64,000 nucleotides of DNA from Candidatus Egerieisoma sp. (GTDB lineage: Bacteria; Bacteroidota; Bacteroidia; Bacteroidales; UBA932), in assembly GCA_045588775.1 (NCBI GenBank), contig JAZNEW010000061.1, positions 31,884-95,883 on the forward strand, read 5' to 3'. Shown here piece by piece: positions 9,326-33,235 of the stretch; positions within the stretch are counted from its first letter, which is position 1, and each line of letters opens with the position of its first letter. The notes beneath the pieces were generated by a model. It was not told where the DNA came from. It ran no database searches and saw only the letters and a program-made list of their open reading frames with translations. Both the position numbers and the translations under genes were made by a program.

Positions 9326-9949
9326 TTATTGAAATATATTCTTGTTATTCTCTTTAAGCATTTCCAGAACCGATTCGATATAATCCAGCACTTCGCTCTT
9401 GCCCATTCCGTTCTCCGAAGAGGTTATGAATATTGGTGGCAGCTCCTCCCAATATTCGAGCAGTGTCTTCTTGTTCTTTTCTATTTGGGATATCAGTGCA
9501 TTTTTGCCCAGTTTGTCACCTTTTGTGAAGATTATTGAGAAGGGAATCTGGGCTTCGCCCACAGCCATCAGGAATTCGAGATCGATTTTCTGGATGGGAA
9601 GTCTCGAATCGAGAAGTACAAACAATACCGCAAGCTCTTCTGATTTGCTCACATAGGTATTTATCATATTTGTAAGTCTCTCTCTTCCTGCCTGTGAAAT
9701 TTTGGCATATCCGTAACCCGGCAGATCTACAAGATACCAGTTGTCATTTATTTGGAAATGGTTTATGAGCAGGGTCTTACCCGGAGTGGCTGAAGTTTTG
9801 GCCAGTTTGTTGTTGTCGCACAACATATTTATGAGGGACGATTTGCCCACATTCGATCTTCCTATAAAGGCAAATTCAGGCAATTTGGCTTTTGGCCTAT
9901 CCTTCAATTGTTGGCTACTGCCGGCAAAAACAGCTTTTGTTATTCTCAT
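9326..9949 (-). CDS. yihA: Ribosome biogenesis GTP-binding protein YihA/YsxC (EngB)
   Basis: 'GRSNVGKSSLINML', 'DLPGYGYA', 'TKGDK'. Confidence 0.9.
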   Translation of the reverse strand: MRITKAVFAGSSQQLKDRPKAKLPEFAFIGRSNVGKSSLINMLCDNNKLAKTSATPGKTLLINHFQINDNWYLVDLPGYGYAKISQAGRERLTNMINTYVSKSEELAVLFVLLDSRLPIQKIDLEFLMAVGEAQIPFSIIFTKGDKLGKNALISQIEKNKKTLLEYWEELPPIFITSSENGMGKSEVLDYIESVLEMLKENNKNIFQ

Positions 9950-10063
9950 CAGACCTCAATTTTATTGCAAATGTACTAAAGCGTAGCCGAAATATCTAAA
10001 AAAAGGTTATAAATAAATAAAAAAATAGTACTTTTATACAATATTTGTCTGAGAGAAGAGAGT

Positions 10064-11272: not shown

Positions 11273-11465
11273 TGGAACATATATGGAAAAGATGAGTTAT
11301 GTGGAGGCCGTAGCCCGGCTGGAGGATATTGTTGCAAAGATGGAAGATCCTGAACTGGATATTGCAGCAGTAAAAGGGCTGATGGAAAAAGGCAAGGAGC
11401 TGATAGCTTTTTGCAGAAAAGAACTGGAAGGATACGAAGAAGAATTTAAAAATATACAATTATGA
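11244..11465 (+). CDS. xseB: Exodeoxyribonuclease VII small subunit
   Basis: 'SYVEAVARLEDIVAKMEDPELDI' is typical of XseB. An alternative start at ATG 11283 would avoid the 29-nt overlap with xseA. Confidence 0.75.
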   Translation: MKKLKMLENSGTYMEKMSYVEAVARLEDIVAKMEDPELDIAAVKGLMEKGKELIAFCRKELEGYEEEFKNIQL

Positions 11466-13438: not shown

Positions 13439-13458
13439 TTTTATTTGTAAAAATAGAT

Positions 13459-13466
13459 TATCTTTG
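13459..13466 (+). promoter_or_regulatory. -7 promoter box TATCTTTG
   Basis: Perfect TAnnTTTG, 24 nt upstream of the ATG at 13490. Confidence 0.4.
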
Positions 13467-13489
13467 CACCGTCAAAAAAATATAGAATA

Positions 13490-15418
13490 ATGGCTTATTT
13501 GGAATTTAATAAAGAGGAGCTTGTAAATCTTGAATATTCGTTGGAGAGAGAGATTCTTTTGACAAACAGGGCCGGCGGTTATATCAATACCACTATAGTG
13601 GGCTGCAATACCCGCAAATATCACGGTCTTCTGGTTGTGCCAATCGAAAACTTCAATAATGAAAGGCATATTCTGCTTTCAACTCTGCACGAATCGTTAG
13701 TACAGCACGGACAGGTATTCAATTTGGGAATCAGTTCATACGGCAAAGTGTATGAACCGAGAGGTCACAAGTATATTGTAGATTTTGAAATGGACTATGC
13801 TTCCACCATAACTTACAGAGTTGGTGGAATGATTTTCAGCAAAACCATAATGTTTGTAAGGGAGACAGAGGAGGTGCTTGTGAAGTATACATTACTTGAT
13901 GCTCACTCTGAGACAACTCTCCGCATAAAGCCATTTTTGGCATTCAGAAATATACATGCGCTTACATATGCAAATACTGATGCCAATACAAAATATACAG
14001 AGGTGAATAATGGTGTGGCATTCAAACTGTATGAGGGCTTTCCAACCCTTTACCTGCAGTTGAACAGATCCGGCGAGTGGGTAGCCAATCCTGATTGGTA
14101 CAAGAATATAACTTATAAAGAGGAGAGCCGTAGAGGATTTGCAGATAAAGAGGATCTTTTTGTTCCAGGATATTTTGAAATTCCAATAAAGAAGGGAGAG
14201 AGTATAATACTTTCCGCTTCGACATCAGAGATCAAGCCGCGCGGTTTGAAGACAAGATTTGCAGATGAAGTTGCAAAGAGGGTTGACAATTCAAGAAACA
14301 GTTATGAGGATTGTCTGAAACTTGCAGGACAGCAGTGTGTGCTTAAACAGAACAACAAATATAGTGTGAATGCCGGTTATACTTGGGATTATGAGGATTT
14401 GAGGTACTCCCTTATTGCAATTCCGGGCCTGACACTATACAACGATGGTGATACAAAACATTTTGAGGCTGTTCTGGAGAATCTTCTTACAGAAAAGAGA
14501 GCGCGTTTGTTCAAGGCCGGCAATGAGCCTGATCTTCCTTTGTGGTTGTTCAGAACTTTGCAGCAGTATATAGAGTATGGGGCAAAGCCGGAGTATGTGT
14601 GGAAAAAGTATGGCAAGGATTTGTCGGCACTGCTTGATACCTATACAGATGGTACCAGAAACGAAGTTGTCCTTCATGAAAACGGACTTTTGTGGTGTCA
14701 GAAACCGGGTGTGGCACTCTCTTGGATGAATGTTTGCAGCAATGGCGCTCCTGTTACAGAGCGTTACGGATATCAGGTTGAGACAAATGCTTTGTGGTAC
14801 AATGCACTGTGCTTTGCTGTTGAGATGGATGAGAAGTATGGCAAAGGTGCTTTGAGAAAGAAATGGGATAGAGTAATCAACTCTATAAAAGTCAATTATA
14901 TCAACTATTTCTGGGTGGAGGAAAGAGGTCATCTTGCCGATTTCTACAACGAAAACGGAAAGAATATATTTACCCGTCCCAACCAGTTGATAGCGGCTGC
15001 CGTAGAGTACTCTCCAATTGATGACATTACCAAGATGGAGGTGCTTAAAGCTGTTAGAAAAGAGCTGCTTACAGTTAGAGGTATCAGAACATTATCTCCT
15101 AAAAACCCGATATACAAAGGCGTTTATGAGGGTGATCAGGTTGCAAGAGACCATGCGCACCATAATGGTTGTGCCTTCCCTTGGCTGTTGGGCCCGTATG
15201 TTGAGGCAACTGTAAAATTGTTGGGCAAATCAGCAGTGAAGAAGGCAAAAGAGCTGTTCAATGCCTTTGAGGAGGATATCAATATTCATGGAATAGGCTC
15301 CATTGCAGAACTTTACGATGGAAACCCTTCGCACAAGCCACACGGTTGTATATCTTCATCAGTGAGTGTTGCTGAAGTTATTAGAGGAAAATATTTGTTA
15401 AATAAAATAAAGAAATAA
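13490..15418 (+). CDS. Glycogen debranching enzyme-like protein (amylo-alpha-1,6-glucosidase family)
   Basis: 642 aa with 'NTRKYHGLL' near the N-terminus and a C-terminal (alpha/alpha)6-type region 'AFPWLLGPYVEA...GSIAELYDG'. Lies inside the glucan cluster. Confidence 0.8.
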   Translation: MAYLEFNKEELVNLEYSLEREILLTNRAGGYINTTIVGCNTRKYHGLLVVPIENFNNERHILLSTLHESLVQHGQVFNLGISSYGKVYEPRGHKYIVDFEMDYASTITYRVGGMIFSKTIMFVRETEEVLVKYTLLDAHSETTLRIKPFLAFRNIHALTYANTDANTKYTEVNNGVAFKLYEGFPTLYLQLNRSGEWVANPDWYKNITYKEESRRGFADKEDLFVPGYFEIPIKKGESIILSASTSEIKPRGLKTRFADEVAKRVDNSRNSYEDCLKLAGQQCVLKQNNKYSVNAGYTWDYEDLRYSLIAIPGLTLYNDGDTKHFEAVLENLLTEKRARLFKAGNEPDLPLWLFRTLQQYIEYGAKPEYVWKKYGKDLSALLDTYTDGTRNEVVLHENGLLWCQKPGVALSWMNVCSNGAPVTERYGYQVETNALWYNALCFAVEMDEKYGKGALRKKWDRVINSIKVNYINYFWVEERGHLADFYNENGKNIFTRPNQLIAAAVEYSPIDDITKMEVLKAVRKELLTVRGIRTLSPKNPIYKGVYEGDQVARDHAHHNGCAFPWLLGPYVEATVKLLGKSAVKKAKELFNAFEEDINIHGIGSIAELYDGNPSHKPHGCISSSVSVAEVIRGKYLLNKIKK

Positions 15419-15420
15419 CA

Positions 15421-16713
15421 ATGAGAGTTTTAATGTTCGGGTGGGAGTTTCCTCCTCATATTGCCGGAGGTTTGGGAACTGCTTGTTACGGTCTTACGAA
15501 GGGATTGGCCAAGCATGATGTTGACATATTGTTTGTGATGCCGTCTGCATCTGGCGATGAGGACCAGTCTGCTGTAAAAATCGTAAATGCAAGTGATGTG
15601 CCTTTTACTCAGACATGGAGCGATATGCAGTCATTTCTCAATAAAGTTGATTTCTTGAAGGTGTCATCGAATCTGGTACCTTATATCGATCCACAACTTT
15701 ATACAGAGTATGCCGGTTCTAAGATAGAAAAATCGGAGTATGAGCAGTTTAAAATAAAATACGGAAGCAAATACAAATTCTCAGGCAAATATGGTACAAA
15801 TTTGATGGAGGAGGTTGCGAGCTACGCAATGGTGGCTGCAACAATCGCTTCCGAGAATCAGTTTGATGTAATACATGCTCACGACTGGCTTACATACGCT
15901 GCCGGTATTGCCGCAAAACGTATATCCGGAAAACCTCTTGTGATACATGTTCATGCAACTTCATTCGACAGGGGAAGTGCCGACAATATCGATACCCGCG
16001 TATATGAGATCGAGCGCATGGGTATGTTGGCTGCAGATAAGGTTATAACAGTAAGTAATCTTACAAGAAATATAGTAATCAATAAATACGGAATAGATCC
16101 AAGTAAGGTCATAACAGTTCACAATGCTGTGGATTTCAACGAGTTCAAACAGGTTGATGTAAAGAGGGGTGTTGATGACAAGATTGTTACATTCTTGGGT
16201 CGTATTACATTCCAGAAGGGTCCGGAGTACTTTATAGAGGCGGCTGCAAAAGTGTTGAAACGCTATCCTAAAGCCCGCTTTGTAATGGCCGGTAACGGAG
16301 ATCTTATGAACCGTTCGATAAGGCGTGTGGCAAAATTGGGTATTGCAGACCGTTTCCATTTTACAGGCTTCTTAAGGGGTGCAGATGTGAAAAAGATGTT
16401 TGCCTATTCGGATGTGTATGTAATGCCTTCCGTTTCCGAGCCGTTTGGTATTTCTCCATTGGAGGCAATGAAATCGAATGTGCCTACCATAATATCAAAA
16501 CAGTCGGGTGTGGCTGAGGTTTTGAAATATGCCATAAAGGTTGATTTCTGGGATATAGATGCCATGGCTGATGCCATGTACGGTTTGTTGGCTTATCCTG
16601 CACTATCGCAGATGAGCATGAGATGCGGTGTTGAGGAGGTAAATGAATTGAAATGGGAGAATGCTGCATTAAAAATTAAAGATGTTTACTCGATGGCAAT
16701 TGCAGGCGAGTAA
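15421..16713 (+). CDS. Glycosyltransferase family 4-like alpha-glucan (glycogen) synthase candidate
   Basis: 'MRVLMFGWEFPPHIAGGLGTA', 'HAHDWLT', C-terminal 'PSVSEPFGISPLEAM' (EX7E). Confidence 0.8.
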   Translation: MRVLMFGWEFPPHIAGGLGTACYGLTKGLAKHDVDILFVMPSASGDEDQSAVKIVNASDVPFTQTWSDMQSFLNKVDFLKVSSNLVPYIDPQLYTEYAGSKIEKSEYEQFKIKYGSKYKFSGKYGTNLMEEVASYAMVAATIASENQFDVIHAHDWLTYAAGIAAKRISGKPLVIHVHATSFDRGSADNIDTRVYEIERMGMLAADKVITVSNLTRNIVINKYGIDPSKVITVHNAVDFNEFKQVDVKRGVDDKIVTFLGRITFQKGPEYFIEAAAKVLKRYPKARFVMAGNGDLMNRSIRRVAKLGIADRFHFTGFLRGADVKKMFAYSDVYVMPSVSEPFGISPLEAMKSNVPTIISKQSGVAEVLKYAIKVDFWDIDAMADAMYGLLAYPALSQMSMRCGVEEVNELKWENAALKIKDVYSMAIAGE

Positions 16714-16743
16714 TTTTAAACAGATAAAAAATAGATAAAAGAT

Positions 16744-17979
16744 ATGGACAAGTCATTATGTTTTTATTTCCAGGTGCATCAGCCGGACAGATTGAGATTA
16801 TACCGTTTTTTTGATATTGGAAATGATTCCCAATATTTTGATGATTTTGCAAACAGAACAATTCTGAGAAGAGTTGCCGACAGATGTTATCTGCCTATGA
16901 ATGCGATAATTCTTGAGTTGATCAACAAACATAAAGGGGAGTTTAAAGTAGCCTATTCAATTTCGGGTGTTGCTTTGGAGCAGTTCGAAAAGTATGCGCC
17001 GGAAGTGCTTGAGAGTTTCAAGAGATTGGCAGATACAAAATGTGTGGAGTTCCTTGCCGAAACCTACTCGCACAGTCTGGCATCCCTGATTTCCGAGAAA
17101 GAGTTCAAAGCTCAGGTTAAAGAGCATGCTGCTGCAATCAAGAGACATTTTGGTGTAACTCCAAAAGCATTCAGAAACACAGAGCTTATCTATTCAGATG
17201 AGATAGGTGCAACTGTAGCTGATATGGGTTACAATGTAATGCTTACAGAGGGCGCAAAACATATTCTGGGATGGAAGAGTCCTAACTATGTTTATACAAA
17301 TGCAATCAATCCAAAATTGAAACTGATGTTGAAAAACTTCAATTTGAGTGATGATATTGCATTCCGTTTCTCAGACAGAAGCAATCCTAACTGGCCGCTT
17401 ACAAGTGAGAAATATGCGCAATGGCTGAATGAGGCAGGCAAGAATGATGAGGTTATCAACCTCTTTATGGATTATGAGACATTTGGTGAGCACCAGAGAC
17501 AATCTACAGGAATATTTGAGTTTATGAGAGCGTTGCCGGGAGCAGTGCTTGCAAATACAAATCTCAAGTTCCGCACACCTTCAGAGGTTGTAAAAGAGCA
17601 TCAGCCTGTAGCACCTCTGCATGTTCCGTTTGCAATTTCCTGGGCAGACGAGGAGCGTGATACAAGTGCGTGGATCGGAAATGAATTGCAGAATGAGGCT
17701 TTCCACAAATTGTATGAAATGGAGAAATCTGTAATGGCTACAAAAGATGAGTCACTGATAGCTGATTTCAGAAAATTGCAGGAGAGCGACCATTTTTATT
17801 ATATGTGTACCAAATTCTTCTCAGATGGTGCGGTGCATAAATATTTTAACCCTTATGATACTCCGTATGAGGCATTCATCAATTATATGAATGCATTGAG
17901 CGATTTTCAGTTGAGGGTTGCCAAAGTTGCAGCAAAACCGGCAAAAAGTGCTGCAAAATCTAAAAAGGTATCGAAATAA
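16744..17979 (+). CDS. Glycoside hydrolase family 57 alpha-amylase-like protein
   Basis: 'FYFQVHQPDRL', 'MDYETFGEH'. Ends in a Lys/Ala-rich tail 'AKVAAKPAKSAAKSKKVSK'. Confidence 0.85.
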   Translation: MDKSLCFYFQVHQPDRLRLYRFFDIGNDSQYFDDFANRTILRRVADRCYLPMNAIILELINKHKGEFKVAYSISGVALEQFEKYAPEVLESFKRLADTKCVEFLAETYSHSLASLISEKEFKAQVKEHAAAIKRHFGVTPKAFRNTELIYSDEIGATVADMGYNVMLTEGAKHILGWKSPNYVYTNAINPKLKLMLKNFNLSDDIAFRFSDRSNPNWPLTSEKYAQWLNEAGKNDEVINLFMDYETFGEHQRQSTGIFEFMRALPGAVLANTNLKFRTPSEVVKEHQPVAPLHVPFAISWADEERDTSAWIGNELQNEAFHKLYEMEKSVMATKDESLIADFRKLQESDHFYYMCTKFFSDGAVHKYFNPYDTPYEAFINYMNALSDFQLRVAKVAAKPAKSAAKSKKVSK

Positions 17980-23141: not shown

Positions 23142-24293
23142 ATGAAAAAGAGCATTCTTATAGTAATGGCTGCGTTGCTGGTATTTTCTTGTGCCCCAAA
23201 AGATAACGCAGTGATAGATGTGGAGGTTCAAGGTGGCGGAGAGAAAGAGATAATCCTCTCAAAACTGCATGTGAACCATATAAATGTTGTGGATACTTTG
23301 ACTTTGAATGCAAAGGGTTCTGCAAAGTATAGTGTGTCTGTGGGAGAACAGACTCCTGATTTCTTCTATTTGTCGTACAACAAAAAGAGATTGGCATCAC
23401 TGATTCTAAAAGGTGGGGACCGTGTTAAGGTTTCTGTGGATACATTGGGTAACAACCTTTCTGTTGAGGGATCCCAAGAATCTGTAAGACTTGCCGAAGT
23501 TGAGGCTAAAGTTCATAAGTTCACTTCGCAGTTCGACTCTCTCTCTTACGAGTTGGTCTCTGCGGTAGAGGCAAATGATACCAAGAAATCAGACGAATTG
23601 CAATATGCATTGGGACGCCACTTCATACAATACAAGAGAGCGGCAGTTGCAGATATAATGCAGAATCCATATTCATTTGCAAATGTTACACTTCTGTATC
23701 AGAAGCTGAGTGAAAGCCTGCCTCTTTTTGGAGCAGTTACAGATGTTGCATATTTCAAGCGCGTTTCGGATTCACTGCAGACCATATATCCAAATTCGGT
23801 ATATGTGAGATCTCTGAAAGAAGAGGTTGCCAGACTGGAAAATGTTATGGCATTGGACAATAAAATCAAAACAGCACAGGAACAGGCATATCCGGAACTT
23901 TCGTTGCCTGATACACAAGCCAAAACCCAAAAGCTGTCGTCATTGCTCGGCAAACCTTTTGTATTGGTATTCTGGACAAGCTCAGTTGCACAGCAGAAGA
24001 TGTTCAATCACGACCTTAAAGAGCTTTATGCAAAATACAATCCTAAAGGTCTTCAGGTATATCAGGTGAGCGCAGATGTTGATAAAGCTGCTTGGGCAAC
24101 AATCGTTAAGGATCAGCAGTTGCCTTGGATTAATGTTTGCGACGGATTTGGTGTGCAATCAACAGCCTTGCATACATATGGCGTAACAACATTGCCTGCA
24201 ATGTTCATTTTCGACAAAGAGGGCAATATCGTGGCCAAAAACATATTTGATAAAGTTGCTCTCGACAGAGAGTTGGGCAAGCTCTCTTACTAA
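23142..24293 (+). CDS. TlpA/thioredoxin-fold lipoprotein lacking the CXXC motif
   Basis: Lipobox 'LLVFSC'. C-terminal Trx-like region 'KPFVLVFWTSSVAQQ' stands where 'FWASWCGPC' is expected. Confidence 0.7.
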   Translation: MKKSILIVMAALLVFSCAPKDNAVIDVEVQGGGEKEIILSKLHVNHINVVDTLTLNAKGSAKYSVSVGEQTPDFFYLSYNKKRLASLILKGGDRVKVSVDTLGNNLSVEGSQESVRLAEVEAKVHKFTSQFDSLSYELVSAVEANDTKKSDELQYALGRHFIQYKRAAVADIMQNPYSFANVTLLYQKLSESLPLFGAVTDVAYFKRVSDSLQTIYPNSVYVRSLKEEVARLENVMALDNKIKTAQEQAYPELSLPDTQAKTQKLSSLLGKPFVLVFWTSSVAQQKMFNHDLKELYAKYNPKGLQVYQVSADVDKAAWATIVKDQQLPWINVCDGFGVQSTALHTYGVTTLPAMFIFDKEGNIVAKNIFDKVALDRELGKLSY

Positions 24294-24298
24294 TGCTT

Positions 24299-25015
24299 TT
24301 ATAGCAGTTTCTTAGGCTTGCCTGCAACAAAATCTTTAAGATAGAAGGGTTCAAAGTATGCTACATCTTTGAACTCTTTTTTATTGAGCATATCTGCTGC
24401 AATAACTCTCATGCCAAAGGCATGGGGCATCTGTTCTGCAAAAACTGCATTAGGATGGTTGATCAGGGCCTTGAATTTCTCTGAGCCATTGCCGGTGAAA
24501 AGGACTTTGCCTGCCTCGAGTTCCTCCTTGAAACTGTTTTCGTCGAGGATAAGTGCCTTGGTTTGGGTAAGAGCCTCTCCATTTGAATTGAAAGTAGCAG
24601 TGTAGACCTCCATACGACGGGCATCAATCATTGGCACAATCAGATATGGCTCATCTTTTTCAATCTTGTCTTGTCCACTGTTTATCAGATTGTTATCTAT
24701 GGCGCATCTGGCAATGGTATCTAATGTGCCAACGCCAATGAGCGGTTTGCCGGAACCGTAGCACAGCCCCTTGGCACACGATACGCCAACTCTCAATCCG
24801 GTGTAGGAACCTGGCCCTTCACTTACAGCTATTGCGCTGCAATCCTGAATAGTGAGGTTATTTTCGGCCAATATATCCCGGATATATTTTGCAAGCAGCG
24901 AAGCATGTGATTTGGGTTCGTTGATATATTTCTCTGCAATCAGTTTGTCTGCAGAACTTATCGCAACGGAGCATGATTCTGTTGCTGTTTCAATTAGCAG
25001 TATGATATTTTCCAT
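24299..25015 (-). CDS. tsaB: tRNA t6A37 modification protein TsaB
   Basis: 'ILLIETATESCSVAI', 'VSEGPGSYTGLRVG'. Confidence 0.85.
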   Translation of the reverse strand: MENIILLIETATESCSVAISSADKLIAEKYINEPKSHASLLAKYIRDILAENNLTIQDCSAIAVSEGPGSYTGLRVGVSCAKGLCYGSGKPLIGVGTLDTIARCAIDNNLINSGQDKIEKDEPYLIVPMIDARRMEVYTATFNSNGEALTQTKALILDENSFKEELEAGKVLFTGNGSEKFKALINHPNAVFAEQMPHAFGMRVIAADMLNKKEFKDVAYFEPFYLKDFVAGKPKKLL

Positions 25016-25025
25016 ATAATCTTCT

Positions 25026-26264
25026 TTAATTATTTTCTGTTATCTCTTTTATCTCTACAATTGAGCCATTTTTCAGCTCCCTTGTTATTGCGCTGTATGG
25101 CCCGGTAACAATAAGTGTGCTGTCCGACAATCCTTCAAGTACAACTATATTTTTCATATCCTGAATGCCTGTCCTGACAATAGCAGGCTCTACTTTTGAA
25201 GTGGCTTTATCGTATATGAAAATATGCTCTGTGATACAGTCTGTCGGCAGGCTGTCGGTCAATCCGCTTCGTGTTGTAATGGCCTGCAATGGTACAACAA
25301 GGGCATTGTGGCATATTTCTGTCTCTATTCCAACCGATGCCGACATCCCCGGTCTGAATGGAAGAGGATTCTTTTGGAGAAGGTCATTATAAGATTCCGG
25401 GCAAATGACCACATGTACTTCAAAGCTTGTAACCTGGTCGAGACTTGCTGCAGCTCCACTGTTTTTGGCCGAATTGGCAATCTCGGTAACAACGCCCCTG
25501 AACTTTCTGTTGGGATAGGCATCAACCTCCACATAGGCGGTATCTGCAATACTCAACTTGATTATATCATTCTCGTTTACATCAACAAGAACCTCCATGG
25601 CATTAAAATCGGCAATCCTCATCATCTCTGTTCCGGCCATCTGGCTGGTGCCCACCACTCTTTCTCCCTTTTCAACCTCCAGCTTTGAGACAATTCCGTT
25701 GATTGGGGCATAAATTGCAGTTTTTTGAAGACTCTCCCTGGCCTCTTTAAGTGCCGCTTCTGCACTTTTTATATTGTATCTGGCATAGTTGAGCTGTTCC
25801 ACAGCTATTTCGTATTTCGAAAGTGAGTTCTCATAATCCGCCTTAGAAATGGCCTTTTGCTCATAAAGCATCTTGTCTCTTTTGAAAGCCTGTTCTGTTT
25901 GTGCCAGCTGGCTCTTCTGTTGGGAATATTGTGCCTTTACCGAATTTAATGAGGCTTGAGCCCGCTCTACGGCAGATATGTAGAGATCCTGTCGGATTTT
26001 AATCAAAAGATCACCCTCTTTTACATTATCACCCTCTTTAACATTCAGCTCTATAATTTCTCCTGAAACATCGGGACTTATTTTTATCTCGGTAACAGGC
26101 CTGATCTTGCCATTTGCAGGGATGCTCTCTATTATAGTGGTACGCTGGGGATATCCCACACTAACCGGAATACCACCGGAACCTCTGTTCTTGGAGATAA
26201 CAATCAGCAGAATCATTACTGCAAAGGCTGCAATCAATATATGTTTTTTCCGGATCTTTTTCAT
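25026..26264 (-). CDS. HlyD/MacA-type periplasmic adaptor (membrane fusion protein)
   Basis: N-terminal TM, lipoyl-like 'VSGEIIELNVKEGDNVKEGDLL', long coiled-coil, 'IYAPINGIVS', beta-barrel region. Confidence 0.85.
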   Translation of the reverse strand: MKKIRKKHILIAAFAVMILLIVISKNRGSGGIPVSVGYPQRTTIIESIPANGKIRPVTEIKISPDVSGEIIELNVKEGDNVKEGDLLIKIRQDLYISAVERAQASLNSVKAQYSQQKSQLAQTEQAFKRDKMLYEQKAISKADYENSLSKYEIAVEQLNYARYNIKSAEAALKEARESLQKTAIYAPINGIVSKLEVEKGERVVGTSQMAGTEMMRIADFNAMEVLVDVNENDIIKLSIADTAYVEVDAYPNRKFRGVVTEIANSAKNSGAAASLDQVTSFEVHVVICPESYNDLLQKNPLPFRPGMSASVGIETEICHNALVVPLQAITTRSGLTDSLPTDCITEHIFIYDKATSKVEPAIVRTGIQDMKNIVVLEGLSDSTLIVTGPYSAITRELKNGSIVEIKEITENN

Positions 26265-26270
26265 AAACTT

Positions 26271-27596
26271 CTATAATTTTATGGGTACTCCTCTGTAGAA
26301 GTCGAGTATTTTCAGCTGGAACAGATATTGGAATCCGGCCTGATAATATTCTGATTGTGCTTTTGACAAATTTGTTTTTGCCACAATATAATCGGTACCG
26401 TTTACAATTCCCACATCAAATTTTTGTTCCACATAATTGAATGATTCCTGACTTGCCTGCATATTCTTTTCTGCAGCATTATATTTTTCATAAGCTCCTA
26501 CAGCATTATTGTAGGCGGTAGAAATATCTTTATACAATTGCTGACAGGATTTTTTCAATTCAATTTCATTATGCTCCACATTAAGTCTGGCATTGCGGAT
26601 ATTTGTATTTGTACGCCATCCGTTAAATATAGGAATATTCAGACTGAACCCGATTGATGGGTTGCGGTTTTCATTGAATTGGGTCAGAAAGGCCTGCTCC
26701 CTGCTGTCGCTGTAATATGTTCCATACCCTGCAGAAAACGATAATGAGGGGTAGGCATTCCCCTTCTGTATTTTATAGTCGTACCTGCTTTTTTCAAGTT
26801 GCAGCTCAGCCGATTTAATCTGAGGCAGAGAGCTGGCTGCCGCATATATTTCATCAATATTTTTGCCCGACAAATCATCCATTATAAAATTACCCGAAGG
26901 ATACTCCACCGTAAAATCTGAATCATTTGGAAGATCCAGCAATTGGGCAAGAACCAGAGTATTGCTTTTGACACTGTTCCCGGCCTCAATAAGTTGTACC
27001 CTCTCATTGGCAAGTTGTGCCTCTATCTCCAATAATGTGCTGTATGCCTGACTGCCCGCATCAACCAGCTTTTTTGTGCGCATAACCTGCTCCTTTACGC
27101 TGTTGTAGCTCTTTTCCAGGGATTTTTCAATCTCAATGTACAAGAGTACCTGCAGATATGCTTTGGTTATTGCAACAGATATTTCATCTTTCAGCTTTTC
27201 TGAATCCTGTATTGAAATCTCAAGCTGAAGTTTGCTGCTTTTGAGGGCATTTGTCTTTGACAGGCCCTGTATTATCGGCATCGAAGCACTGATGCTCGAA
27301 CTGGTGCTCTGTGTAAGTTGGTTTGTTATCTGGAGATCGTTGATATTAACAGATTTTCCCCAGTTCATATTGTGATTTATTCCGGCATTTACCGTTGGAA
27401 TGAAATCGAGTTTGGATTGCAGGACATTGTTCTTGGCCTGCTCAATGGAGAGAGCCTGCTGCTTTATCTGCAAATTGTTTTTATGGGCATACTCTATACA
27501 CCGTTCAAGACTCCATATATCCTGTCCATATAAATGTGAAGAGGAGAGGATTGTGTATGATAGAATAGTGATTATGAGGGGTTTGATATATTTCAT
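26271..27596 (-). CDS. TolC-family outer membrane efflux protein
   Basis: Signal peptide, 'LERCIEYAHKNNLQIKQ' opening, two repeat halves, 441 aa. Confidence 0.85.
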   Translation of the reverse strand: MKYIKPLIITILSYTILSSSHLYGQDIWSLERCIEYAHKNNLQIKQQALSIEQAKNNVLQSKLDFIPTVNAGINHNMNWGKSVNINDLQITNQLTQSTSSSISASMPIIQGLSKTNALKSSKLQLEISIQDSEKLKDEISVAITKAYLQVLLYIEIEKSLEKSYNSVKEQVMRTKKLVDAGSQAYSTLLEIEAQLANERVQLIEAGNSVKSNTLVLAQLLDLPNDSDFTVEYPSGNFIMDDLSGKNIDEIYAAASSLPQIKSAELQLEKSRYDYKIQKGNAYPSLSFSAGYGTYYSDSREQAFLTQFNENRNPSIGFSLNIPIFNGWRTNTNIRNARLNVEHNEIELKKSCQQLYKDISTAYNNAVGAYEKYNAAEKNMQASQESFNYVEQKFDVGIVNGTDYIVAKTNLSKAQSEYYQAGFQYLFQLKILDFYRGVPIKL

Positions 27597-27649
27597 AATA
27601 TGTCTCCGATACTTTTCAGCAAAGGGATTTGCCCTAAATGCAAAGATAC

Positions 27650-27701
27650 AAAAAAGAAGTGCATATCAAGATTGGCATTGGTAAAACTTGTTATGCACTT
27701 C
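27650..27701 (-). terminator. Intrinsic terminator/attenuator after the peptide genes
   Basis: On the minus strand, the GAAGTGCATAACAAG / CTTGATATGCACTTC stem (15 bp, 1 mismatch, 16-nt loop) is followed by TTTTTTG. Confidence 0.55.
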
Positions 27702-27715
27702 ACGATAAAAAAGTG

Positions 27716-27913
27716 TTAGAACTTATAGTAATAGCCATTTATTGCCTGGGTGGCAATACACTTCTGACCTTTGTTCACAAACAGATAGACCAGTCTTGCC
27801 AAAGTACCGGCACACTGGGCAACCATTTCAACAAAGGCTGCCAGCTCCTCGCTGCGTCCTCCCGAGATGAGCGAAGATTCAAATTCTGAAATTTCTACAA
27901 TCCTCTTTTTCAT
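27716..27913 (-). CDS. Double-glycine-leader peptide 1 (bacteriocin/microcin-like precursor)
   Basis: Leader 'MKKRIVEISEFESSLISGG' followed by a 46-aa core with 2 Cys that ends in GYYYKF. The ATG at 27913 overlaps the upstream TGA (ATGA). The track start at 27925 adds MEKY. Confidence 0.7.
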   Translation of the reverse strand: MKKRIVEISEFESSLISGGRSEELAAFVEMVAQCAGTLARLVYLFVNKGQKCIATQAINGYYYKF

Positions 27914-28098
27914 ATACTTTTCCATCCTTTTTCAAAACCTCTTGTTATATCCTCTTTGTATTCAGATATGAAATCCACAATAAATTTCATGTAGCGGACA
28001 ATTCTGAAGAGTTCCCGCCATGCCGTTCCGCCTCTAATCTGCAGCTCACTCTCCGAAACAGATAACAGGCTGCATTTCTTCTTCATATTTTTTTCCAT
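27910..28098 (-). CDS. Double-glycine-leader peptide 2 (bacteriocin/pheromone-like precursor)
   Basis: Leader 'MEKNMKKKCSLLSVSESELQIRGG' (LSxxELxxIxGG-like) followed by a 38-aa Cys-free amphipathic core. Confidence 0.7.
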   Translation of the reverse strand: MEKNMKKKCSLLSVSESELQIRGGTAWRELFRIVRYMKFIVDFISEYKEDITRGFEKGWKSI

Positions 28099-28143
28099 AA
28101 TATAAATTTTGTGCCTACCGGAATGGTGCGTAGGCTGCCACCG

Positions 28144-28161
28144 TTTGAGTGCGCACTCAAA
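28144..28161 (-). promoter_or_regulatory. Perfect 18-bp palindrome abutting the ABC exporter stop codon
   Basis: TTTGAGTGCGCACTCAAA lies immediately 3' of the TAA at 28162-28164. A further GCCTAC/GTAGGC stem sits at 28113-28135. Confidence 0.4.
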
Positions 28162-30252
28162 TTATTGAATTATCATGATATTGTCGGCTATTGTTTTAAA
28201 TAAACTGTTGTGTGATATTATGATAATGGTTTTGCCATTTTTCTTCAGCTCTTTAATGATATCTGCCATGAGCAATTCCGACTCTTTGTCCATGGAGGAG
28301 GTTGATTCGTCAAAAATCATGATTTCAGGATTTTTGTACAAAAGTCTGGCTATTGCCAATTTTTGCGTTTCGCCTCCCGAAAAGAGCATGCCCTCCTCTC
28401 CAATATGGGTAAGAAGACCAGCCGGCAGCCCTGCTATTTTATCTTCAAGCCCTGTAGAGCGACATATCTGTATAACCCTTTCCATATCGGGATTCTCCTC
28501 TCCACAAGTGATATTCTCCAATATCGAGGCATTGAACAGGTAACATTTTTGTGGAACAATTGATACATATCTCCTCCATTGCCCTATTGGAATTGTTGAA
28601 ATATCGGTATCTCCGCAAAATATGGCGCCGTTATCAATCCGGTAATCGCGCATAATCAGGGAGACCAACGTGCTTTTGCCGCAACCTGCCGCTCCGTTGA
28701 GCAGAGTGATTTCTCCTTTTGGAATATTCAGATCGAGCTCCTTGAACAGCTGGTTGCATCCGGGATATGAAAATGTCAATTTGTTTATCCGTATGTTTCC
28801 GGGTCTATATTTCTCCCTGTCGGAACCCTTATGCAGGTATGTATCTTCCTCCTCAAGCTCCAAAATTTCATAAAGCCTTTCTGCAGAGACTGCCGCTTGG
28901 GTAATGATGGGATTCAGACCGGTTAAATTGGAGAGAGGTGTGCAGAACAGGGAGCAGAGCGTATAAAATGAGACCAGCTCTCCAATTGTTATGCTATTGT
29001 TGAAAACTGCAAATCCGCCCGAAACTATAATTGCCGATATCATGCCTTTTGATACCGCTTCGGCAGAACATCCGAGTATAATGCCGGCTTTTGCCGCCTT
29101 GTATAGATTTTTGGCAAGTTTGCTGTAACTTCCTTTTATTTTCTGTATCGACAAATTTTCGGCAGAATAGTGCCTGCTGCAAGCAATTCCCTCAATGCCG
29201 TGCAGCAGATCGGTCTCAAATCTGGCCCCCGATTCAGCCAAATGCCGGTTATGTTTTTTATTGATTGGCCCCGACAGGACAAACAGCCCGATATACACCG
29301 GAATAAATGCCAATGACAACAGGGCCAGGTTGGTGTTGTAGTGAAACATTACAGGAACCGCCACTGCAAGAGTGAAGAGACTCGTTGCAATGGATACAAT
29401 TCCATCCGACAAAAATAGTCTTATATTGAAGGCATCTCCTATACGGGAGCTGATGTCTCCCGGCTGGTAGCGGTTAAAAAACTCCAGAGGCAGAACCGCG
29501 AGTTTGTTTACATATCGGGTTATAAGATGGTTGTCTATCTTTATTCCATGAGTTGTAATGCAGATGTTTTTCAGATAGTTTATACATAAGCCCATAATGG
29601 CCAATATGATTATTGTTGCAGAGATGGCTGTAAGGGTGGAGATATCTCCATTCGGTATGGCATTGTCGATAATCTGTTGCAGAAATATGGAGCTGCTTAT
29701 CCCAATCATAGTTGTAATGAGGGTTCCGGCAATGGCAAAAAGGATCTCCCATTTATACAGGTATGCAAGTTTGAGCAATTTCAGATAAGTGTTTCCCTTC
29801 TCATCTCTCCTTTTAAAGTGGCCCGACGGAGTAAAGGTAATGATGTACCCGGTCCAGATATTGCAGAATTCAGGCCTGCCCAGTTTTATAAACTCCCCTT
29901 TGGCAGGATCCATTACCATATAACTCTCCTTGTTGATGCTGTAAAGAACCATGAAATGCAGCATGCCATCTTCTGTTTTGGTATGTATTATTGCCGGCAG
30001 AGGAGAATCTGCCAGAGAAGAGGAATCCCTGTCGGGCGATTTGTAGGCTTTGCAACTGAATCCCAGCTTATTGCCACCCTCGATCAATCCCTTTATTGTT
30101 ATACCCTCTTTTGTGCATCCGCAGAGTAATCTGGCCTTTGCAAGAGATATCCTCACTCCATGCCATTGTGCCACAGAGCACAGGCATGCAGCTCCGCAAT
30201 CATGGAGACTTTGCTGTTCTATTTTTAAATCTTTTTTCATTTGGGCAGACAT
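28162..30252 (-). CDS. Peptidase C39 domain-containing ABC exporter (bacteriocin-processing type)
   Basis: N-terminal 'QSLHDCGAACL' (catalytic Cys), 'LHFMVLY' (His), 'MDPAKG' (Asp). Six-TM core. Walker A 'GAAGCGKST', signature 'FSGGETQ', Walker B 'IMIFDEST'. Confidence 0.9.
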   Translation of the reverse strand: MSAQMKKDLKIEQQSLHDCGAACLCSVAQWHGVRISLAKARLLCGCTKEGITIKGLIEGGNKLGFSCKAYKSPDRDSSSLADSPLPAIIHTKTEDGMLHFMVLYSINKESYMVMDPAKGEFIKLGRPEFCNIWTGYIITFTPSGHFKRRDEKGNTYLKLLKLAYLYKWEILFAIAGTLITTMIGISSSIFLQQIIDNAIPNGDISTLTAISATIIILAIMGLCINYLKNICITTHGIKIDNHLITRYVNKLAVLPLEFFNRYQPGDISSRIGDAFNIRLFLSDGIVSIATSLFTLAVAVPVMFHYNTNLALLSLAFIPVYIGLFVLSGPINKKHNRHLAESGARFETDLLHGIEGIACSRHYSAENLSIQKIKGSYSKLAKNLYKAAKAGIILGCSAEAVSKGMISAIIVSGGFAVFNNSITIGELVSFYTLCSLFCTPLSNLTGLNPIITQAAVSAERLYEILELEEEDTYLHKGSDREKYRPGNIRINKLTFSYPGCNQLFKELDLNIPKGEITLLNGAAGCGKSTLVSLIMRDYRIDNGAIFCGDTDISTIPIGQWRRYVSIVPQKCYLFNASILENITCGEENPDMERVIQICRSTGLEDKIAGLPAGLLTHIGEEGMLFSGGETQKLAIARLLYKNPEIMIFDESTSSMDKESELLMADIIKELKKNGKTIIIISHNSLFKTIADNIMIIQ

Positions 30253-30284
30253 TTGTTGTCTGCAAAAATGGCCGGCAGTTCCCT

Positions 30285-30328
30285 AAAAAAGAAACAGAAG
30301 CGTAAAATCTTGGAAATTTACGCTTCTG
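30285..30328 (-). terminator. Intrinsic terminator of cvpA
   Basis: Perfect 12-bp stem CAGAAGCGTAAA (30295-30306) / TTTACGCTTCTG (30317-30328), followed on the minus strand by TTTCTTTTTT. Confidence 0.65.
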
Positions 30329-30356
30329 GAAATATTCTGGAAATATTCTGGAAATA
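30324..30356. repeat. Three perfect tandem copies of the 11-bp unit TTCTGGAAATA
   Basis: Read directly at 30324-30334, 30335-30345 and 30346-30356. A degenerate copy TCTTGGAAATT lies at 30308-30318. Confidence 0.9.
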
Positions 30357-30379
30357 AAAGGGCCTTTAAAAAAATGGAA

Positions 30380-30888: not shown

Positions 30889-32055
30889 TTATTTGTTCTG
30901 TAAAGTATCTGACTCAGGAACAAGAATACCCATCGACCAGACGGCGCGGACATTCAAATTATTGTCCAGAATTACGATATCTGCATCTTTGTCCTTTTCG
31001 AGGGAGCCTTTTTTGTCGTATATGCCCATGATTTTCGCAGGGGTTTCTGTTGCCATGCGGATAGCGTCTCCAAGAGGAATGCCCGCTTTTTGGTTCATGG
31101 TCCTGACAAGTACATCCATGGTTGCTATACTTCCTGCAAGTGATGAGTGGTCTGCATATTTGCAAACGCCATCTTCTATAATCACAGGTGAGCCCTCTTC
31201 TGGTTTTATATTGCTTCCTGCATACTTCAGTGCGTCGGTAACAAGACATGTGCGCTCTGCACCTTTGAGCTTGTATACCATTTTAAGTATGGTGTGAGGA
31301 AGGTGTCTTCCGTCGGCAATAACCTCCACAGTCATGTCGTCCATCAGGTAAACACTCTCAATGGTGCCTTCGTATTTGTACTCCTGACGTTTGTGGAAAC
31401 CTGGCATGGAGTTGTAGAAGTTTGCAGTGTGGGTAAATCCTGCCTCATACGCCGCCTTTATATCTTCAAATTCAGCCTCTGTATGTGTTATTGTAGCCAG
31501 AATGCCTTTTGAAACCAACATTTGTGCAAGTGCATGGGCTCCCGGTATCTCAGGACTGATATCCCATCTTTTTATGCAGTTTGTGCTGTTCAGTATGGCT
31601 GTATACTCCTCTTTGTCGGGATTTTTTACTTTATGCACAGGCCCCGACATTTTGGGATTGAGGTATGGTCCGGCAAGGTGCAGACCCATAACTTGCGAAT
31701 TCTCTTCGTTCATGAGTTTTTCGCAAATTTCTATGGCTTTGTGGATCGATTCTGTTGGAGATGTGCCAAGTGTGGGGAATATGCTTGTGGCTCCATATCT
31801 CAAATGTGTTGCAACAATTGTACGGAAGGCCTCTTCTGTGCAATCCCTGAAGTCAAAACCGCCTCCGCCGTATACATTCATGGCTATGAAACCGGGTACA
31901 ATGTTCATTCCCTTTGCATCAATGGTATCGGCACCTATAATGGCAAGCTCATTATCTGTAACCGCCAGGATTTTTCCATTGTTGATAAGGACAGATCCGC
32001 CTTTGATCCAGCCTTGTGGGGTAAGAATATTACCGTTTGTAATTTGTGTCAGCAT
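30889..32055 (-). CDS. NagA-like amidohydrolase paralog with degenerate metal site
   Basis: 388 aa, collinear with the neighbouring nagA. It has 'MNVYGGGG' (no HxH), 'HLAGPY' (Glu to Ala) and 'THTANFYNSM' (His to Asn), but keeps 'TDAL'. Confidence 0.8.
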   Translation of the reverse strand: MLTQITNGNILTPQGWIKGGSVLINNGKILAVTDNELAIIGADTIDAKGMNIVPGFIAMNVYGGGGFDFRDCTEEAFRTIVATHLRYGATSIFPTLGTSPTESIHKAIEICEKLMNEENSQVMGLHLAGPYLNPKMSGPVHKVKNPDKEEYTAILNSTNCIKRWDISPEIPGAHALAQMLVSKGILATITHTEAEFEDIKAAYEAGFTHTANFYNSMPGFHKRQEYKYEGTIESVYLMDDMTVEVIADGRHLPHTILKMVYKLKGAERTCLVTDALKYAGSNIKPEEGSPVIIEDGVCKYADHSSLAGSIATMDVLVRTMNQKAGIPLGDAIRMATETPAKIMGIYDKKGSLEKDKDADIVILDNNLNVRAVWSMGILVPESDTLQNK

Positions 32056-32068
32056 CGCACTACTGATA

Positions 32069-33235
32069 TTAGAATAATTTGTTGGTTCCCTCTACTAATT
32101 TACCCATCGCCCAAACGGCACGGATATCAAGATTCTTGTCCAGAACAAGGATATCGGCATCTTTGCCGCGTTGCAGAGATCCTTTGCGGTCGTATATACC
32201 CATGATTTTTGCAGGGGTCTCTGAGGCCATGCGTATGGTGTCTTCCAATGGAACTTCTGCCTTTTGTACCATGGTCTTGATGAGTCTGTCCATTGTGGCA
32301 ACACTGCCTGCAAGTGCAGAACGGTCTGCAAGTTTGCAGACGCCATCCTCAATTATGACTCTCGGGTCGAAGGCTGTCTGGCTGTCGCTGGCTGCGCACG
32401 CAAGGGCATCTGTAATCAGACATGTTCTCTCAACACCTTTTACTTTATATACAAGTCTGAGGATTGTAGGAGGAACATGGATACCGTCGGCAACAACTTC
32501 AACAGTCATGTCATCAATAAGGTAGATACTCTCAACTGTGCCTTCATATTTGTATTCGCGACGTTTGTGGAATCCTGGCATTGCATTGTAGAAGTGTGTG
32601 GCATGAGTGTAGCCTGCCTCGTATGCAGTCATGATATCTTCATATTCTGCCTGAGTGTGGCCTACAGATGCCAGAACGCCTTTTGAGGTGATGTATTTTC
32701 CAAACTGCATAGCTCCAGGCAATTCAGGAGCCGCATCCCATCTCTTTATGCAGTTTGTCTCTTCCAGTAGCGGAATATATTCGTTCGGGTCGGGATTTTT
32801 GATGTTTTCAGGAAGCTGGCCACCTGCCATCTTCATATTGAAATAGTGTCCTTCGAGGTGCAGACCCAATACAGGGCTGTCTTTCTCTGCCATAAGTTTT
32901 TCTGTTGTGGCGGCTGCCTCACGTATCATCGGTATGGTAGATGACGACAATGTTGGGAATATACTTGTTGTTCCATGTTGCATGTGGGCCTTTACAGCAG
33001 TTCTGAAGGCATCCTCTGTTCCCTCCATAAAATCTCTGCCACCGCCGCCGTGTGCATGTATCTCTATACCGCCAGGCACTATATACATGCCTTTGGCATC
33101 AATCAGGTTGGCGCCTACAACGGCCATATCGCAATTTGTTACCTCAAGGATTTTGTTGTCCCTCATTATTATGGAGCCATCTTTGAGCCATCCCTGAGGG
33201 GTAAGAATTTTTCCGTTTATAATCTGTGTTAGCAT
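32069..33235 (-). CDS. nagA: N-acetylglucosamine-6-phosphate deacetylase
   Basis: 'EIHAHGGGG', 'LHLEGHY', 'VGHTQA', 'THATHFYNAMPG', 'ITDAL'. The full ligand set is present. Confidence 0.9.
   Translation of the reverse strand: MLTQIINGKILTPQGWLKDGSIIMRDNKILEVTNCDMAVVGANLIDAKGMYIVPGGIEIHAHGGGGRDFMEGTEDAFRTAVKAHMQHGTTSIFPTLSSSTIPMIREAAATTEKLMAEKDSPVLGLHLEGHYFNMKMAGGQLPENIKNPDPNEYIPLLEETNCIKRWDAAPELPGAMQFGKYITSKGVLASVGHTQAEYEDIMTAYEAGYTHATHFYNAMPGFHKRREYKYEGTVESIYLIDDMTVEVVADGIHVPPTILRLVYKVKGVERTCLITDALACAASDSQTAFDPRVIIEDGVCKLADRSALAGSVATMDRLIKTMVQKAEVPLEDTIRMASETPAKIMGIYDRKGSLQRGKDADILVLDKNLDIRAVWAMGKLVEGTNKLF

Follow-up and report, generated by a model that had tools for sequence, protein, structure and literature searches.

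What does a member of the Bacteroidales export through a set of genes for double-glycine (GG) leader peptides that stands between the housekeeping genes tsaB and cvpA, and how did such a set come to be there? The question is raised by a five-gene locus (positions 25,026-30,356) on a stretch of 64,000 nucleotides from Candidatus Egerieisoma sp. (GenBank assembly GCA_045588775.1, contig JAZNEW010000061.1, positions 31,884 to 95,883), which is referred to here as the window. An earlier note on this DNA had described an ATP-binding cassette (ABC) exporter with a C39 peptidase domain, two small open reading frames (ORFs) with GG leaders, a terminator, a TolC-family protein and an adaptor, and had taken them for a self-contained tripartite locus of the colicin V (ColV) kind, brought in as a compact accessory insertion. 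What was observed is confirmed; how it was interpreted finds support in part. The five genes do lie on the minus strand, with the features first noted, and the ORF list and Pfam show the description to be correct throughout. What is new is that the locus holds two unnamed, obligatorily paired peptide families, that these are inherited vertically across a whole clade, and that the "tripartite" locus is composite. The reading favoured here, with a probability of about 0.5, is that an operon headed by the exporter would cleave and export two unmodified helical peptides by way of the neighbouring TolC protein and adaptor, and that the two would act as a two-peptide bacteriocin.

The exporter and its two peptides

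Judged by its domain content the exporter is a peptidase-containing ABC exporter (PCAT). The 696-aa protein encoded at 28162-30252 on the minus strand (692 aa in the gene calls on identical contigs, which begin 4 codons downstream) matches Peptidase_C39 (5e-30), ABC_membrane (1e-36) and ABC_tran (3e-24) in Pfam, and among solved structures it comes nearest to PCAT1 of Clostridium (4RY2; residues 6-685 aligned at E 2e-105), with a score of 356 bits compared with 284 for ComA and 204 for HlyB. The top-scoring NCBIfam model is TIGR01193 (bacteriocin_ABC), at 393.3 bits and thus under its trusted cutoff of 523.85. In the peptidase domain (residues 11-143; 29824-30222, minus strand) the segments QQSLHDCGAAC, LHFMVL and MDP hold the residues that we take, from what is established for the C39 family, to be the oxyanion Gln and the catalytic Cys, His and Asp; aligned to 4RY2, the motifs DCGAAC, HF(M/V)V and (M/A)DP match PCAT1 column for column, which bears out the intact Cys/His/Asp set that had been read from the sequence. 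The ABC part shows a Walker A motif GAAGCGKST, the signature FSGGE rather than LSGGQ, a Walker B motif IMIFDE and an H-loop ISHN in the translation.

Downstream of the exporter gene lie the two peptide genes, both on the minus strand. The first, pep1 (27910-28098), encodes a 62-aa precursor with the leader MEKNMKKKCSLLSVSESELQIRGG (28027-28098; GG at residues 23-24) and a predicted 38-aa core TAWRELFRIVRYMKFIVDFISEYKEDITRGFEKGWKSI (27913-28026; computed average mass 4759.5 Da). The second, pep2 (27716-27925), encodes a 69-aa precursor (65 aa from the ATG at 27913) with a leader at 27857-27925 (GG at residues 22-23) and a predicted 46-aa core RSEELAAFVEMVAQCAGTLARLVYLFVNKGQKCIATQAINGYYYKF (27719-27856; computed average mass 5180.0 Da), and the positions of the GG pairs agree with the core lengths stated earlier. 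The two frames overlap by 16 nt, and the second in-frame pep2 ATG, at 27913, makes ATGA with the pep1 stop. On the window-identical contigs (L001-L005) the public gene calls begin pep1 at its second Met (58 aa) and pep2 usually at its second Met (65 aa), and in the public annotation of L009-L013 and L094 pep1 is left uncalled; genes as small as these are systematically under-annotated. The longer pep1 form, from the first ATG (62 aa), is favoured because the N-terminal "ME" is conserved throughout the family, and this suggests that the longer start forms of the peptides are the correct ones.

Word-indexed homology searches returned only 4, 2 and 5 relatives. An exhaustive profile search with pep1 gave 39 clusters (50% identity) at E<1e-3, with lengths of 56-88 aa and mostly of about 60 aa; on this count the unnamed family of pep1 comprises 39 clusters or more. 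Contigs were inspected for family members whose identity to the window pep1 lies between 100% and about 32%, and ten lineages were distinguished among them: the window, L005, L009, L098-100, L094, L103, L101/102, L104, L105 and L014. At every locus with visible context the pep1 relative is accompanied by a pep2 relative. An alignment of 37 pep1 sequences has G23, G24, Y47, G54 and G58 invariant, a leader consensus ME..-..GL....(S)EL..RGG, and cores that terminate in (D)F..(E)Y..D...GF.KGW. The leaders resemble proven GG leaders, which run to 15-30 residues, end in GG (or GA/GS) and have conserved hydrophobic positions and an acidic residue ahead of it. Relatives of pep2 are poorly found by sequence, yet one stands directly after pep1 in all ten lineages. 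Their shared motif is GG-R-[DN]-E-x-[VI]-A-x2-V-x2-[VI]-A-x3-G-x2-A-[RK]-x-[VI]-Y; in an alignment of 11 sequences the GG and G40 never vary and A29 and Y47 hardly do, while A36 and A43 are conserved in the closer lineages only (A36-x3-G40-x2-A43, in the closest six sequences). The pep1 of the window is without a GxxxG-type helix-packing motif.

Between the window and L009 the ratio of nonsynonymous to synonymous substitution rates (dN/dS) is 0.14 for pep1 and 0.19 for pep2, at a dS of about 0.7, so that both genes are under purifying selection; together with the conservation in ten lineages this rules out spurious ORFs, and the two GG-leader ORFs are genuine and conserved, with an invariant GG. 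The suspected kinship of the leaders also holds, since the two leader families align with an hhalign E-value of 8e-6 and 83% probability. The aligned part takes in the leader and the first core turns, and beyond these nothing aligns, in keeping with the description of the cores as unrelated to each other. AlphaFold2 models place a leader helix at residues 16-22 and core helices at 27-46 and 48-61 in pep1 (mean predicted local distance difference test score, pLDDT, 79.6), and a short pre-GG helix at 14-20 followed by one long helix at 26-68 in pep2 (pLDDT 66.5). A fold search of the PDB with the pep1 model found no match, helical hairpins so short being uninformative.

The cores had been noted as resembling nothing familiar, and searches against peptide families agree: neither window peptide has a match in Pfam or NCBIfam, and none of the curated GG-leader models matches either at E<=0.1 (none matches pep1 at E<=5). 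A few other family members weakly match ComC (3e-5), BlpC (2e-4) and lactococcin G-beta (4e-3), matches that are attributed to the shared GG-leader region. Each window core has a net charge of +2; across the pep1 family the charge of the core runs from -4 to +4, with a median of +1. The pep1 core has no Cys, and the pep2 core has two in the window, one of which is conserved across lineages. Disulfide-dependent peptides like the bacteroidetocins were considered and rejected, the second pep2 Cys being restricted to the subclade of the window. A regular-expression scan of the window for further GG-leader ORFs gave none that was convincing, a weak test given that it also overlooked pep2. A metagenome scan for further loci with the pattern of a 10-sequence alignment, which was too degenerate, gave no confirmed match, and a search of the literature for the conserved core motifs as text found no occurrence in the papers searched.

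One chromosomal site in ten lineages

The gene order is the same in all ten lineages, ileS-(nagA)-cvpA-[small ORF]-PCAT-pep1-pep2-TolC-adaptor-tsaB-TlpA-like-HIT-greA, as far as the sequence of L101 goes, which ends inside the TolC gene. Over these lineages the identity to the window is 68-99% for IleS and 48-97% for TsaB, and in every one of them pep1 and pep2 overlap or lie <=30 nt apart. Two lineages depart from the order in one place each: L014 has a glycoside hydrolase family 18 (GH18) gene between cvpA and PCAT, and in L101 five unrelated genes stand between pep2 and TolC. The latter insert (L101, from hare gut, 9813-17808) encodes an 888-aa protein, a small AhpC/TSA thioredoxin-fold protein, DUF6029, Omp28 and Peptidase_M64; a Peptidase_M64 gene also occurs in the window itself, at 58120-59520 (minus strand), distant from the locus.

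The PCAT-pep1-pep2 module is therefore vertically inherited, clade-wide, at one chromosomal site. Its members diverge in step, at a higher rate than TolC, adaptor and TsaB: in L103 they are 38% (PCAT), 38% (pep1) and 34% (pep2) identical to those of the window, as against 58%, 58% and 63% for TolC, adaptor and TsaB, and this joint, faster divergence fits a co-evolving module of exporter and cargo. The carriers form a broad, mostly uncultured clade of gut, rumen and digester Bacteroidales; a single ortholog (P0049) has entries in 387 blocks of the assembly collection, and the clade is therefore abundant in rumen and gut samples.

The comparison of the tsaB-cvpA interval thus goes against the compact accessory insertion of the earlier note, the order being equal in all ten peptide-carrying lineages. 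Another possibility named there, a core efflux system present in all relatives without peptide cargo, holds in its first half and fails in its second: the system is core-like, but the peptides are conserved along with it. A self-contained, recently acquired accessory island with a ColV-like tripartite microcin system, which the gene content outwardly resembles, is very remote indeed. Apart from the identical synteny, the GC content stays within 0.37-0.46 over locus and flanks with no break, no integrase or mobility genes flank the module in the lineages examined, the TolC and adaptor genes are ancestral at the site, and the adaptor fails the HlyD model of type I secretion; the last two points are taken up below.

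An older TolC-adaptor-tsaB unit

The TolC-family outer membrane factor (26271-27596, minus strand; 441 aa with a signal peptide) is recognised by Pfam as OEP at 4e-58, in line with its first description, and scores 150 bits against TIGR01844, under the cutoff of 225. The periplasmic adaptor, or membrane fusion protein (MFP), is encoded at 25026-26264 on the minus strand, has 412 aa with an N-terminal membrane anchor, and matches HlyD_D23, HlyD_3 and Biotin_lipoyl_2 in Pfam. It passes TIGR01730 RND_mfp (161 bits, cutoff 94.9), stays under the cutoffs of the MacA model NF008606 (109 bits, cutoff 342) and of the type I HlyD model TIGR01843 (74.4 bits, cutoff 208.65), and has its nearest solved relatives in MacA (E 2e-21), the adaptor that partners HlyB following at 2e-9. 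It had been called HlyD/MacA-type, and of the two the MacA-like half stands, whereas the CvaA/HlyD half, that of type I secretion, does not. Ten nt past the adaptor stop begins tsaB (24299-25015, minus strand; Pfam TsaD family, 6e-27), which, to judge by this spacing, is probably the last gene of a TolC-adaptor-tsaB transcription unit.

This unit was followed beyond the carriers of PCAT by a TsaB-anchored scan of GTDB representative genomes. Among the matches listed are 80 diverse Bacteroidota loci, of which the best is 62% identical; the species of the window and its closest relatives lie outside them, and neighbouring genes were counted by tblastn of the window proteins against the 80 loci. 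All counts that follow refer to these matches listed. An adaptor homologue (42-62% identity) stands directly upstream of tsaB in 24 of the 80 loci, and in 16 of the 24 a TolC homologue can be detected upstream of this adaptor. PCAT occurs in one of the 24 (L014) and is absent from the 23 others, and the TolC relatives upstream of tsaB in loci without PCAT are 29-57% identical to that of the window. The upstream neighbours in these loci are unrelated, a YgjP-like protein, a cargo protein of the type IX secretion system and a glycosyltransferase among them; in L043 they are FtsX-type pump genes with an adaptor of their own. Because the other adaptors found in the same loci are just 21-24% identical, the tsaB-linked adaptors form one orthologous group. 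In 20 of the 80 loci cvpA lies directly upstream of tsaB without any PCAT, and L019 reads cvpA-TolC-adaptor-tsaB with nothing intervening. A TolC gene and a MacA-like adaptor gene without an adjacent pump were seen directly upstream of tsaB (at about 10001) in L019, L043, L044, L052, L054, L056, L065, L070, L071, L080, L084, L085, L090, L092 and L093, loci that span Bacteroidales, Marinilabiliales, Flavobacteriales and Chitinophaga-type genomes; they make up an orphan exit pair, found phylum-wide, beside a gene of tRNA modification.

The TolC and adaptor genes thus have an ancestry separate from that of the PCAT module and are ancestral at the site; their presence in many Bacteroidota without PCAT points to a general-purpose outer-membrane exit pair. 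The locus is in consequence not the self-contained tripartite one first supposed: its TolC and adaptor are linked to tsaB elsewhere without PCAT, a conserved terminator and a -7 promoter motif of their own set them off, and the adaptor is MacA-like. A full MacAB-TolC efflux system was not seen for the pair either: no MacB (FtsX/MacB_PCD) gene lies beside the MacA-like adaptor or among the 20 larger window ORFs outside the locus that were scanned with Pfam.

Predicted transcription boundaries and non-coding elements

The intergenic gaps of the locus measure 127, 63, 119, 6 and 10 nt, and it is the 119-nt spacer between pep2 and the TolC-like gene that holds the boundary between the two units. 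Directly after the pep2 stop, in agreement with the terminator first noted, stands an intrinsic-terminator-like 14-bp interrupted hairpin (27656-27701, minus strand) with a run of six U (27650-27655), and the intergenic sequence folds with -27.7 kcal/mol in RNAfold (z = -2.6); a simple terminator scan overlooked the hairpin because its loop has 16 nt. A hairpin with a U-run recurs at this gap in 9 of the 10 lineages with unrelated stem sequences, and by this comparison the element is conserved in structure and not in sequence. Beyond it TATCTTTG (27641-27648, minus strand), 44 nt before the TolC start codon, matches the Bacteroidetes -7 consensus TAnnTTTG, of which the minus strand has just two matches in 7 kb, this being one; with TAnnTTTG at the equivalent position in 9 of the 10 lineages, the motif may well serve as a promoter.

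Upstream of the exporter gene a control region (30263-30328, minus strand) consists of the cvpA terminator hairpin (30295-30328) with a T-run, followed by a CAnnTTTG motif, CATTTTTG (30263-30270, minus strand), 10 nt before the PCAT start codon. The hairpin is common to the window, L005, L009, L098 and L094, and the motif, a candidate promoter, is found in those five and in L103. Three tandem copies of TTTCCAGAA(T/G)(A/C), at about 30329-30363 on the minus strand, run into the cvpA hairpin from upstream; L005 has three copies and L009 two.

From the PCAT stop to the pep1 start extends a conserved non-coding element (28111-28161, minus strand), made up of an 18-bp perfect palindrome, TTTGAGTGCGCACTCAAA (28144-28161, minus strand), and a 32-nt block, GGTGGCAGCCTACGCACCATTCCGGTAGGCAC (28111-28142, minus strand). 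The block is near-invariant in the window, L009, L098 and L094, where the proteins are 44-82% identical (44-51% for L094), and in L094 the element shows one compensatory pair, C-G to T-A. Rfam has no match to it and finds only a tRNA in the whole window, with nothing credible in the locus. The element may be one of RNA processing or stability, or an operator.

Given two units with a boundary between them, PCAT alone might deliver the peptides to the periplasm, from which vesicles, lysis or an unlinked route would release them, and the adjacency to TolC and adaptor would follow from insertion of the module after cvpA. We hold this to be possible, if on the unlikely side. The TolC-adaptor-tsaB unit does predate PCAT and is widespread without it, the terminator and a separate promoter motif are conserved between the units, and the five-gene insert of L101 parts them further; the adaptor is MacA-like, PCAT is nearer by score to the Gram-positive PCAT1 and ComA than to HlyB, and a bacteroidetocin region of four genes, TolC and MFP not among them, suffices for toxin production (PMC6671954). 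The adjacency has nevertheless been kept in 9 of the 10 lineages over long divergence, the window ORFs scanned with Pfam offer no other pump for the pair, and the export of GG peptides in Gram-negative bacteria normally needs an MFP and TolC, as for ColV (established knowledge; PMC10352776).

Comparison with known systems

The locus functions like a PCAT-dependent class II system, outside every characterised family. The closest parallel in layout is with the class IIb bacteriocins (lactococcin G, plantaricin EF/JK), in which, as here, two different GG-leader genes are adjacent in one operon. Class IIb peptides have GG leaders of 15-30 residues and unmodified helical cores of 30-50 aa, and are exported and cleaved by a C39-ABC protein (PMC2850506). 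The present leaders have 23-24 aa, the cores have 38 and 46 aa and are predicted to be helical, the exporter is a PCAT, and an invariant Gly of pep2 has small residues on either side in the closest six sequences. The differences are a Gram-negative host, the lack of an adjacent immunity gene in the window, cores that are not consistently cationic, no sequence similarity beyond the leader, and inheritance that is clade-wide and vertical rather than strain-variable.

The bacteroidetocins, termed "class IIf" (Coyne et al. 2019), are single peptides in which a leader of 15-16 aa precedes a core of 42 aa; each of the 19 members contains two Cys or more (four in bacteroidetocins A and B), and the loci, which lack TolC and MFP, hold genes for a five-transmembrane protein and a thiol oxidoreductase (PMC6671954). 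With them the present locus shares the order Bacteroidales, unmodified GG-leader peptides, processing by a PCAT and the want of a recognisable immunity gene. It differs in having two peptides, leaders of 23-24 aa, a Cys-free pep1 core and one widely conserved Cys in pep2, and an operon with neither the gene for the five-transmembrane protein nor that for the oxidoreductase. Membership in this family was rejected on leader length, Cys content and these two genes alike.

The ColV system (CvaB-CvaA-TolC) likewise has a Gram-negative PCAT for a GG leader, with MFP and TolC nearby and a cvpA homologue adjoining. Here, however, the adaptor is of the MacA or resistance-nodulation-division type, TolC and adaptor belong to a separate, older operon, and there is no immunity gene. 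A dedicated type I system of the ColV type was rejected on adaptor type and operon structure. The linkage to cvpA looks historical, because cvpA has its own terminator and adjoins tsaB in 20 of the 80 loci listed without PCAT; cvpA was rejected as a dedicated partner on the same two counts, the cvpA-tsaB adjacency predating PCAT, and on the GH18 gene that intervenes in L014. The BGC4-type clusters of Bacteroidales combine PCAT, MFP and outer membrane protein (OMP) with GG precursors of peptides made on ribosomes and modified after translation (RiPPs), and with tailoring enzymes of the radical S-adenosylmethionine, YcaO or other kinds (PMC10352776). The three export components and the GG-motif precursors are the same, but no modification enzyme is found in any of the ten lineages.

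Proposed working and function

In the mechanism proposed, the first unit, PCAT-pep1-pep2, would run from a promoter just past the cvpA terminator to the hairpin after pep2, and the overlapping frames would couple translation and yield similar amounts of both precursors. The C39 domain would recognise the helical GG leaders of 23-24 residues and cut after the GG, and the ABC part would carry the unmodified, amphipathic helical cores of 38 and 46 aa over the inner membrane. The second unit, TolC-adaptor-tsaB, is older; it would have its own promoter and represent a general exit device beside which the PCAT module was placed; through its TolC/MacA-like pair, most probably serving PCAT in this clade, the cores would leave the outer membrane. 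Outside the cell the secreted pair would most likely act jointly, as a class IIb-like bacteriocin or microcin against related Bacteroidales.

The steps differ in strength. Export of both cores by PCAT with cleavage after GG is highly probable. That PCAT uses the neighbouring TolC and adaptor stands close to an even chance; PCAT is the sole inner-membrane exporter adjoining the pair in the window, and layouts of PCAT, MFP and OMP with GG peptides have already been reported in Bacteroidales (PMC10352776). An antibacterial function, argued from the likeness to class IIb, is about as well placed, at evens or a shade under. Joint action of pep1 and pep2, which are always inherited together, appears the most likely mode.

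Several observations weigh against this account. No ORF of >=30 aa is found in any intergenic gap of the window locus, so that it offers no immunity-like gene, and the pep1-family cores, with charges from -4 to +4, are unlike the consistently cationic class IIb peptides. Bacteriocins are normally patchy and strain-variable, and it is unusual for one to be inherited strictly vertically, in single copy, at a housekeeping site. The adaptor, by its model scores, is MacA-like and not the HlyD/CvaA of type I secretion; the terminator between the units and the insert of L101 mean that gene order does not require functional coupling; and bacteroidetocin PCATs do their work with neither TolC nor adaptor linked to them (PMC6671954).

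Because the module is conserved by strictly vertical descent and an immunity gene is absent, a role in signalling or physiology stays alive as a rival. With the same export, the peptide pair might be a conserved secreted signal, or a two-chain physiological factor of the extracellular space or periplasm, used by proteins encoded elsewhere. A module kept single-copy and syntenic in ten of ten lineages over deep divergence would suit such a factor, as would dN/dS values that speak of purifying and not diversifying selection, and a lineage, that of the window, which retains both peptides without an immunity gene. The conserved pep1 residues W27, Y47, G54, F55, G58 and W59 form hydrophilic and aromatic motifs of the surface type, and since the charge varies as well, protein recognition fits better than membrane disruption; pheromones such as ComC and BlpC, moreover, are among the known cargo of PCATs. 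We nonetheless consider this rather unlikely, since the locus has no histidine kinase or response regulator linked to it in any of the ten lineages, cores of 38-46 aa exceed most pheromones in length, and a possible immunity ORF, encoding a small membrane protein, lies upstream of PCAT in 7 of the 10 lineages; to our knowledge no peptide quorum-sensing has been described in Bacteroidales. The fuller form of the idea, to which we give still less weight, as improbable, is that the pair would not be a bacteriocin but a secreted helical factor of two chains, inherited vertically and defining the clade, which would serve as a signal or as a structural or physiological factor of the envelope and whose co-evolving PCAT had been plugged into an ancient, phylum-wide, tsaB-linked TolC/MacA-like exit operon.

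Immunity candidates and neighbouring genes

As first noted, the window has no immunity, modification or regulator gene at the locus, and the housekeeping flanks tsaB, cvpA and nagA are as described (Pfam). If the pair is the two-peptide bacteriocin favoured here, the question of immunity leads to the interval between cvpA and PCAT. In 7 of the 10 lineages this interval holds a small ORF of 47-78 aa, often overlapping the PCAT start, whose product is hydrophilic at the N-terminus and has one transmembrane helix, at the C-terminus (L098:6698-6847, L101:6562-6726, L094:813-956, L103:6402-6551, L014:4287-4523, L104:~6642-6803+ and L105:6620-6793). The window, L005 and L009 lack it and have just 117-127 nt left there (30253-30379 in the window). 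The ORF could encode an immunity or accessory protein that the subclade of the window has lost while the peptides stayed under purifying selection. A protein of the Rce1-like/CPBP intramembrane protease family is encoded at 55135-56025 (minus strand), 27 kb away among unrelated genes. Immunity to some class II bacteriocins is provided by members of this family; the occurrence of this one in the window is probably a coincidence.

On the far side of tsaB, and convergent with it, a gene at 23142-24293 (plus strand) encodes a protein of 383 aa, predicted to be a lipoprotein, that ends in an AhpC/TSA-Thioredoxin_8 (TlpA-like) domain. The gene is kept in all lineages with DNA over that flank and belongs to the housekeeping flank. 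General disulfide machinery is said to be missing in Bacteroides (PMC6671954), and a link between the TlpA-like protein and the two-Cys pep2 of the window is conceivable, although the second Cys is not conserved across lineages. A 1207-aa sensor kinase with HAMP, HisKA and HATPase domains lies about 20 kb off (2226-5849, plus strand), with no evidence tying it to the peptides. Upstream of the ABC exporter Pfam identifies cvpA and two nagA-like genes, the latter being tandem paralogues for 388-aa NagA-like amidohydrolases (30889-32055 and 32069-33235, minus strand), upstream of cvpA; they are absent from the site in the more distant L101, L103, L104 and L105.

Significance

GG peptides exported by PCATs are well known, and those characterised are almost all strain-variable weapons or Gram-positive pheromones. 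Should the present pair prove to be a bacteriocin, it would be a core-genome, two-peptide, immunity-less one in a Gram-negative bacterium, and would put in question both how the producer survives and what the target is. If it is not a bacteriocin, the locus would represent a secreted-peptide biology so far unrecognised in Bacteroidales, and, were the pair a signal, the first peptide-based communication system in that order. Beyond the clade that carries PCAT, the pump-less, tsaB-linked TolC/MacA-like pair is a candidate for a shared outer-membrane exit that may serve unlinked or newly inserted pumps.

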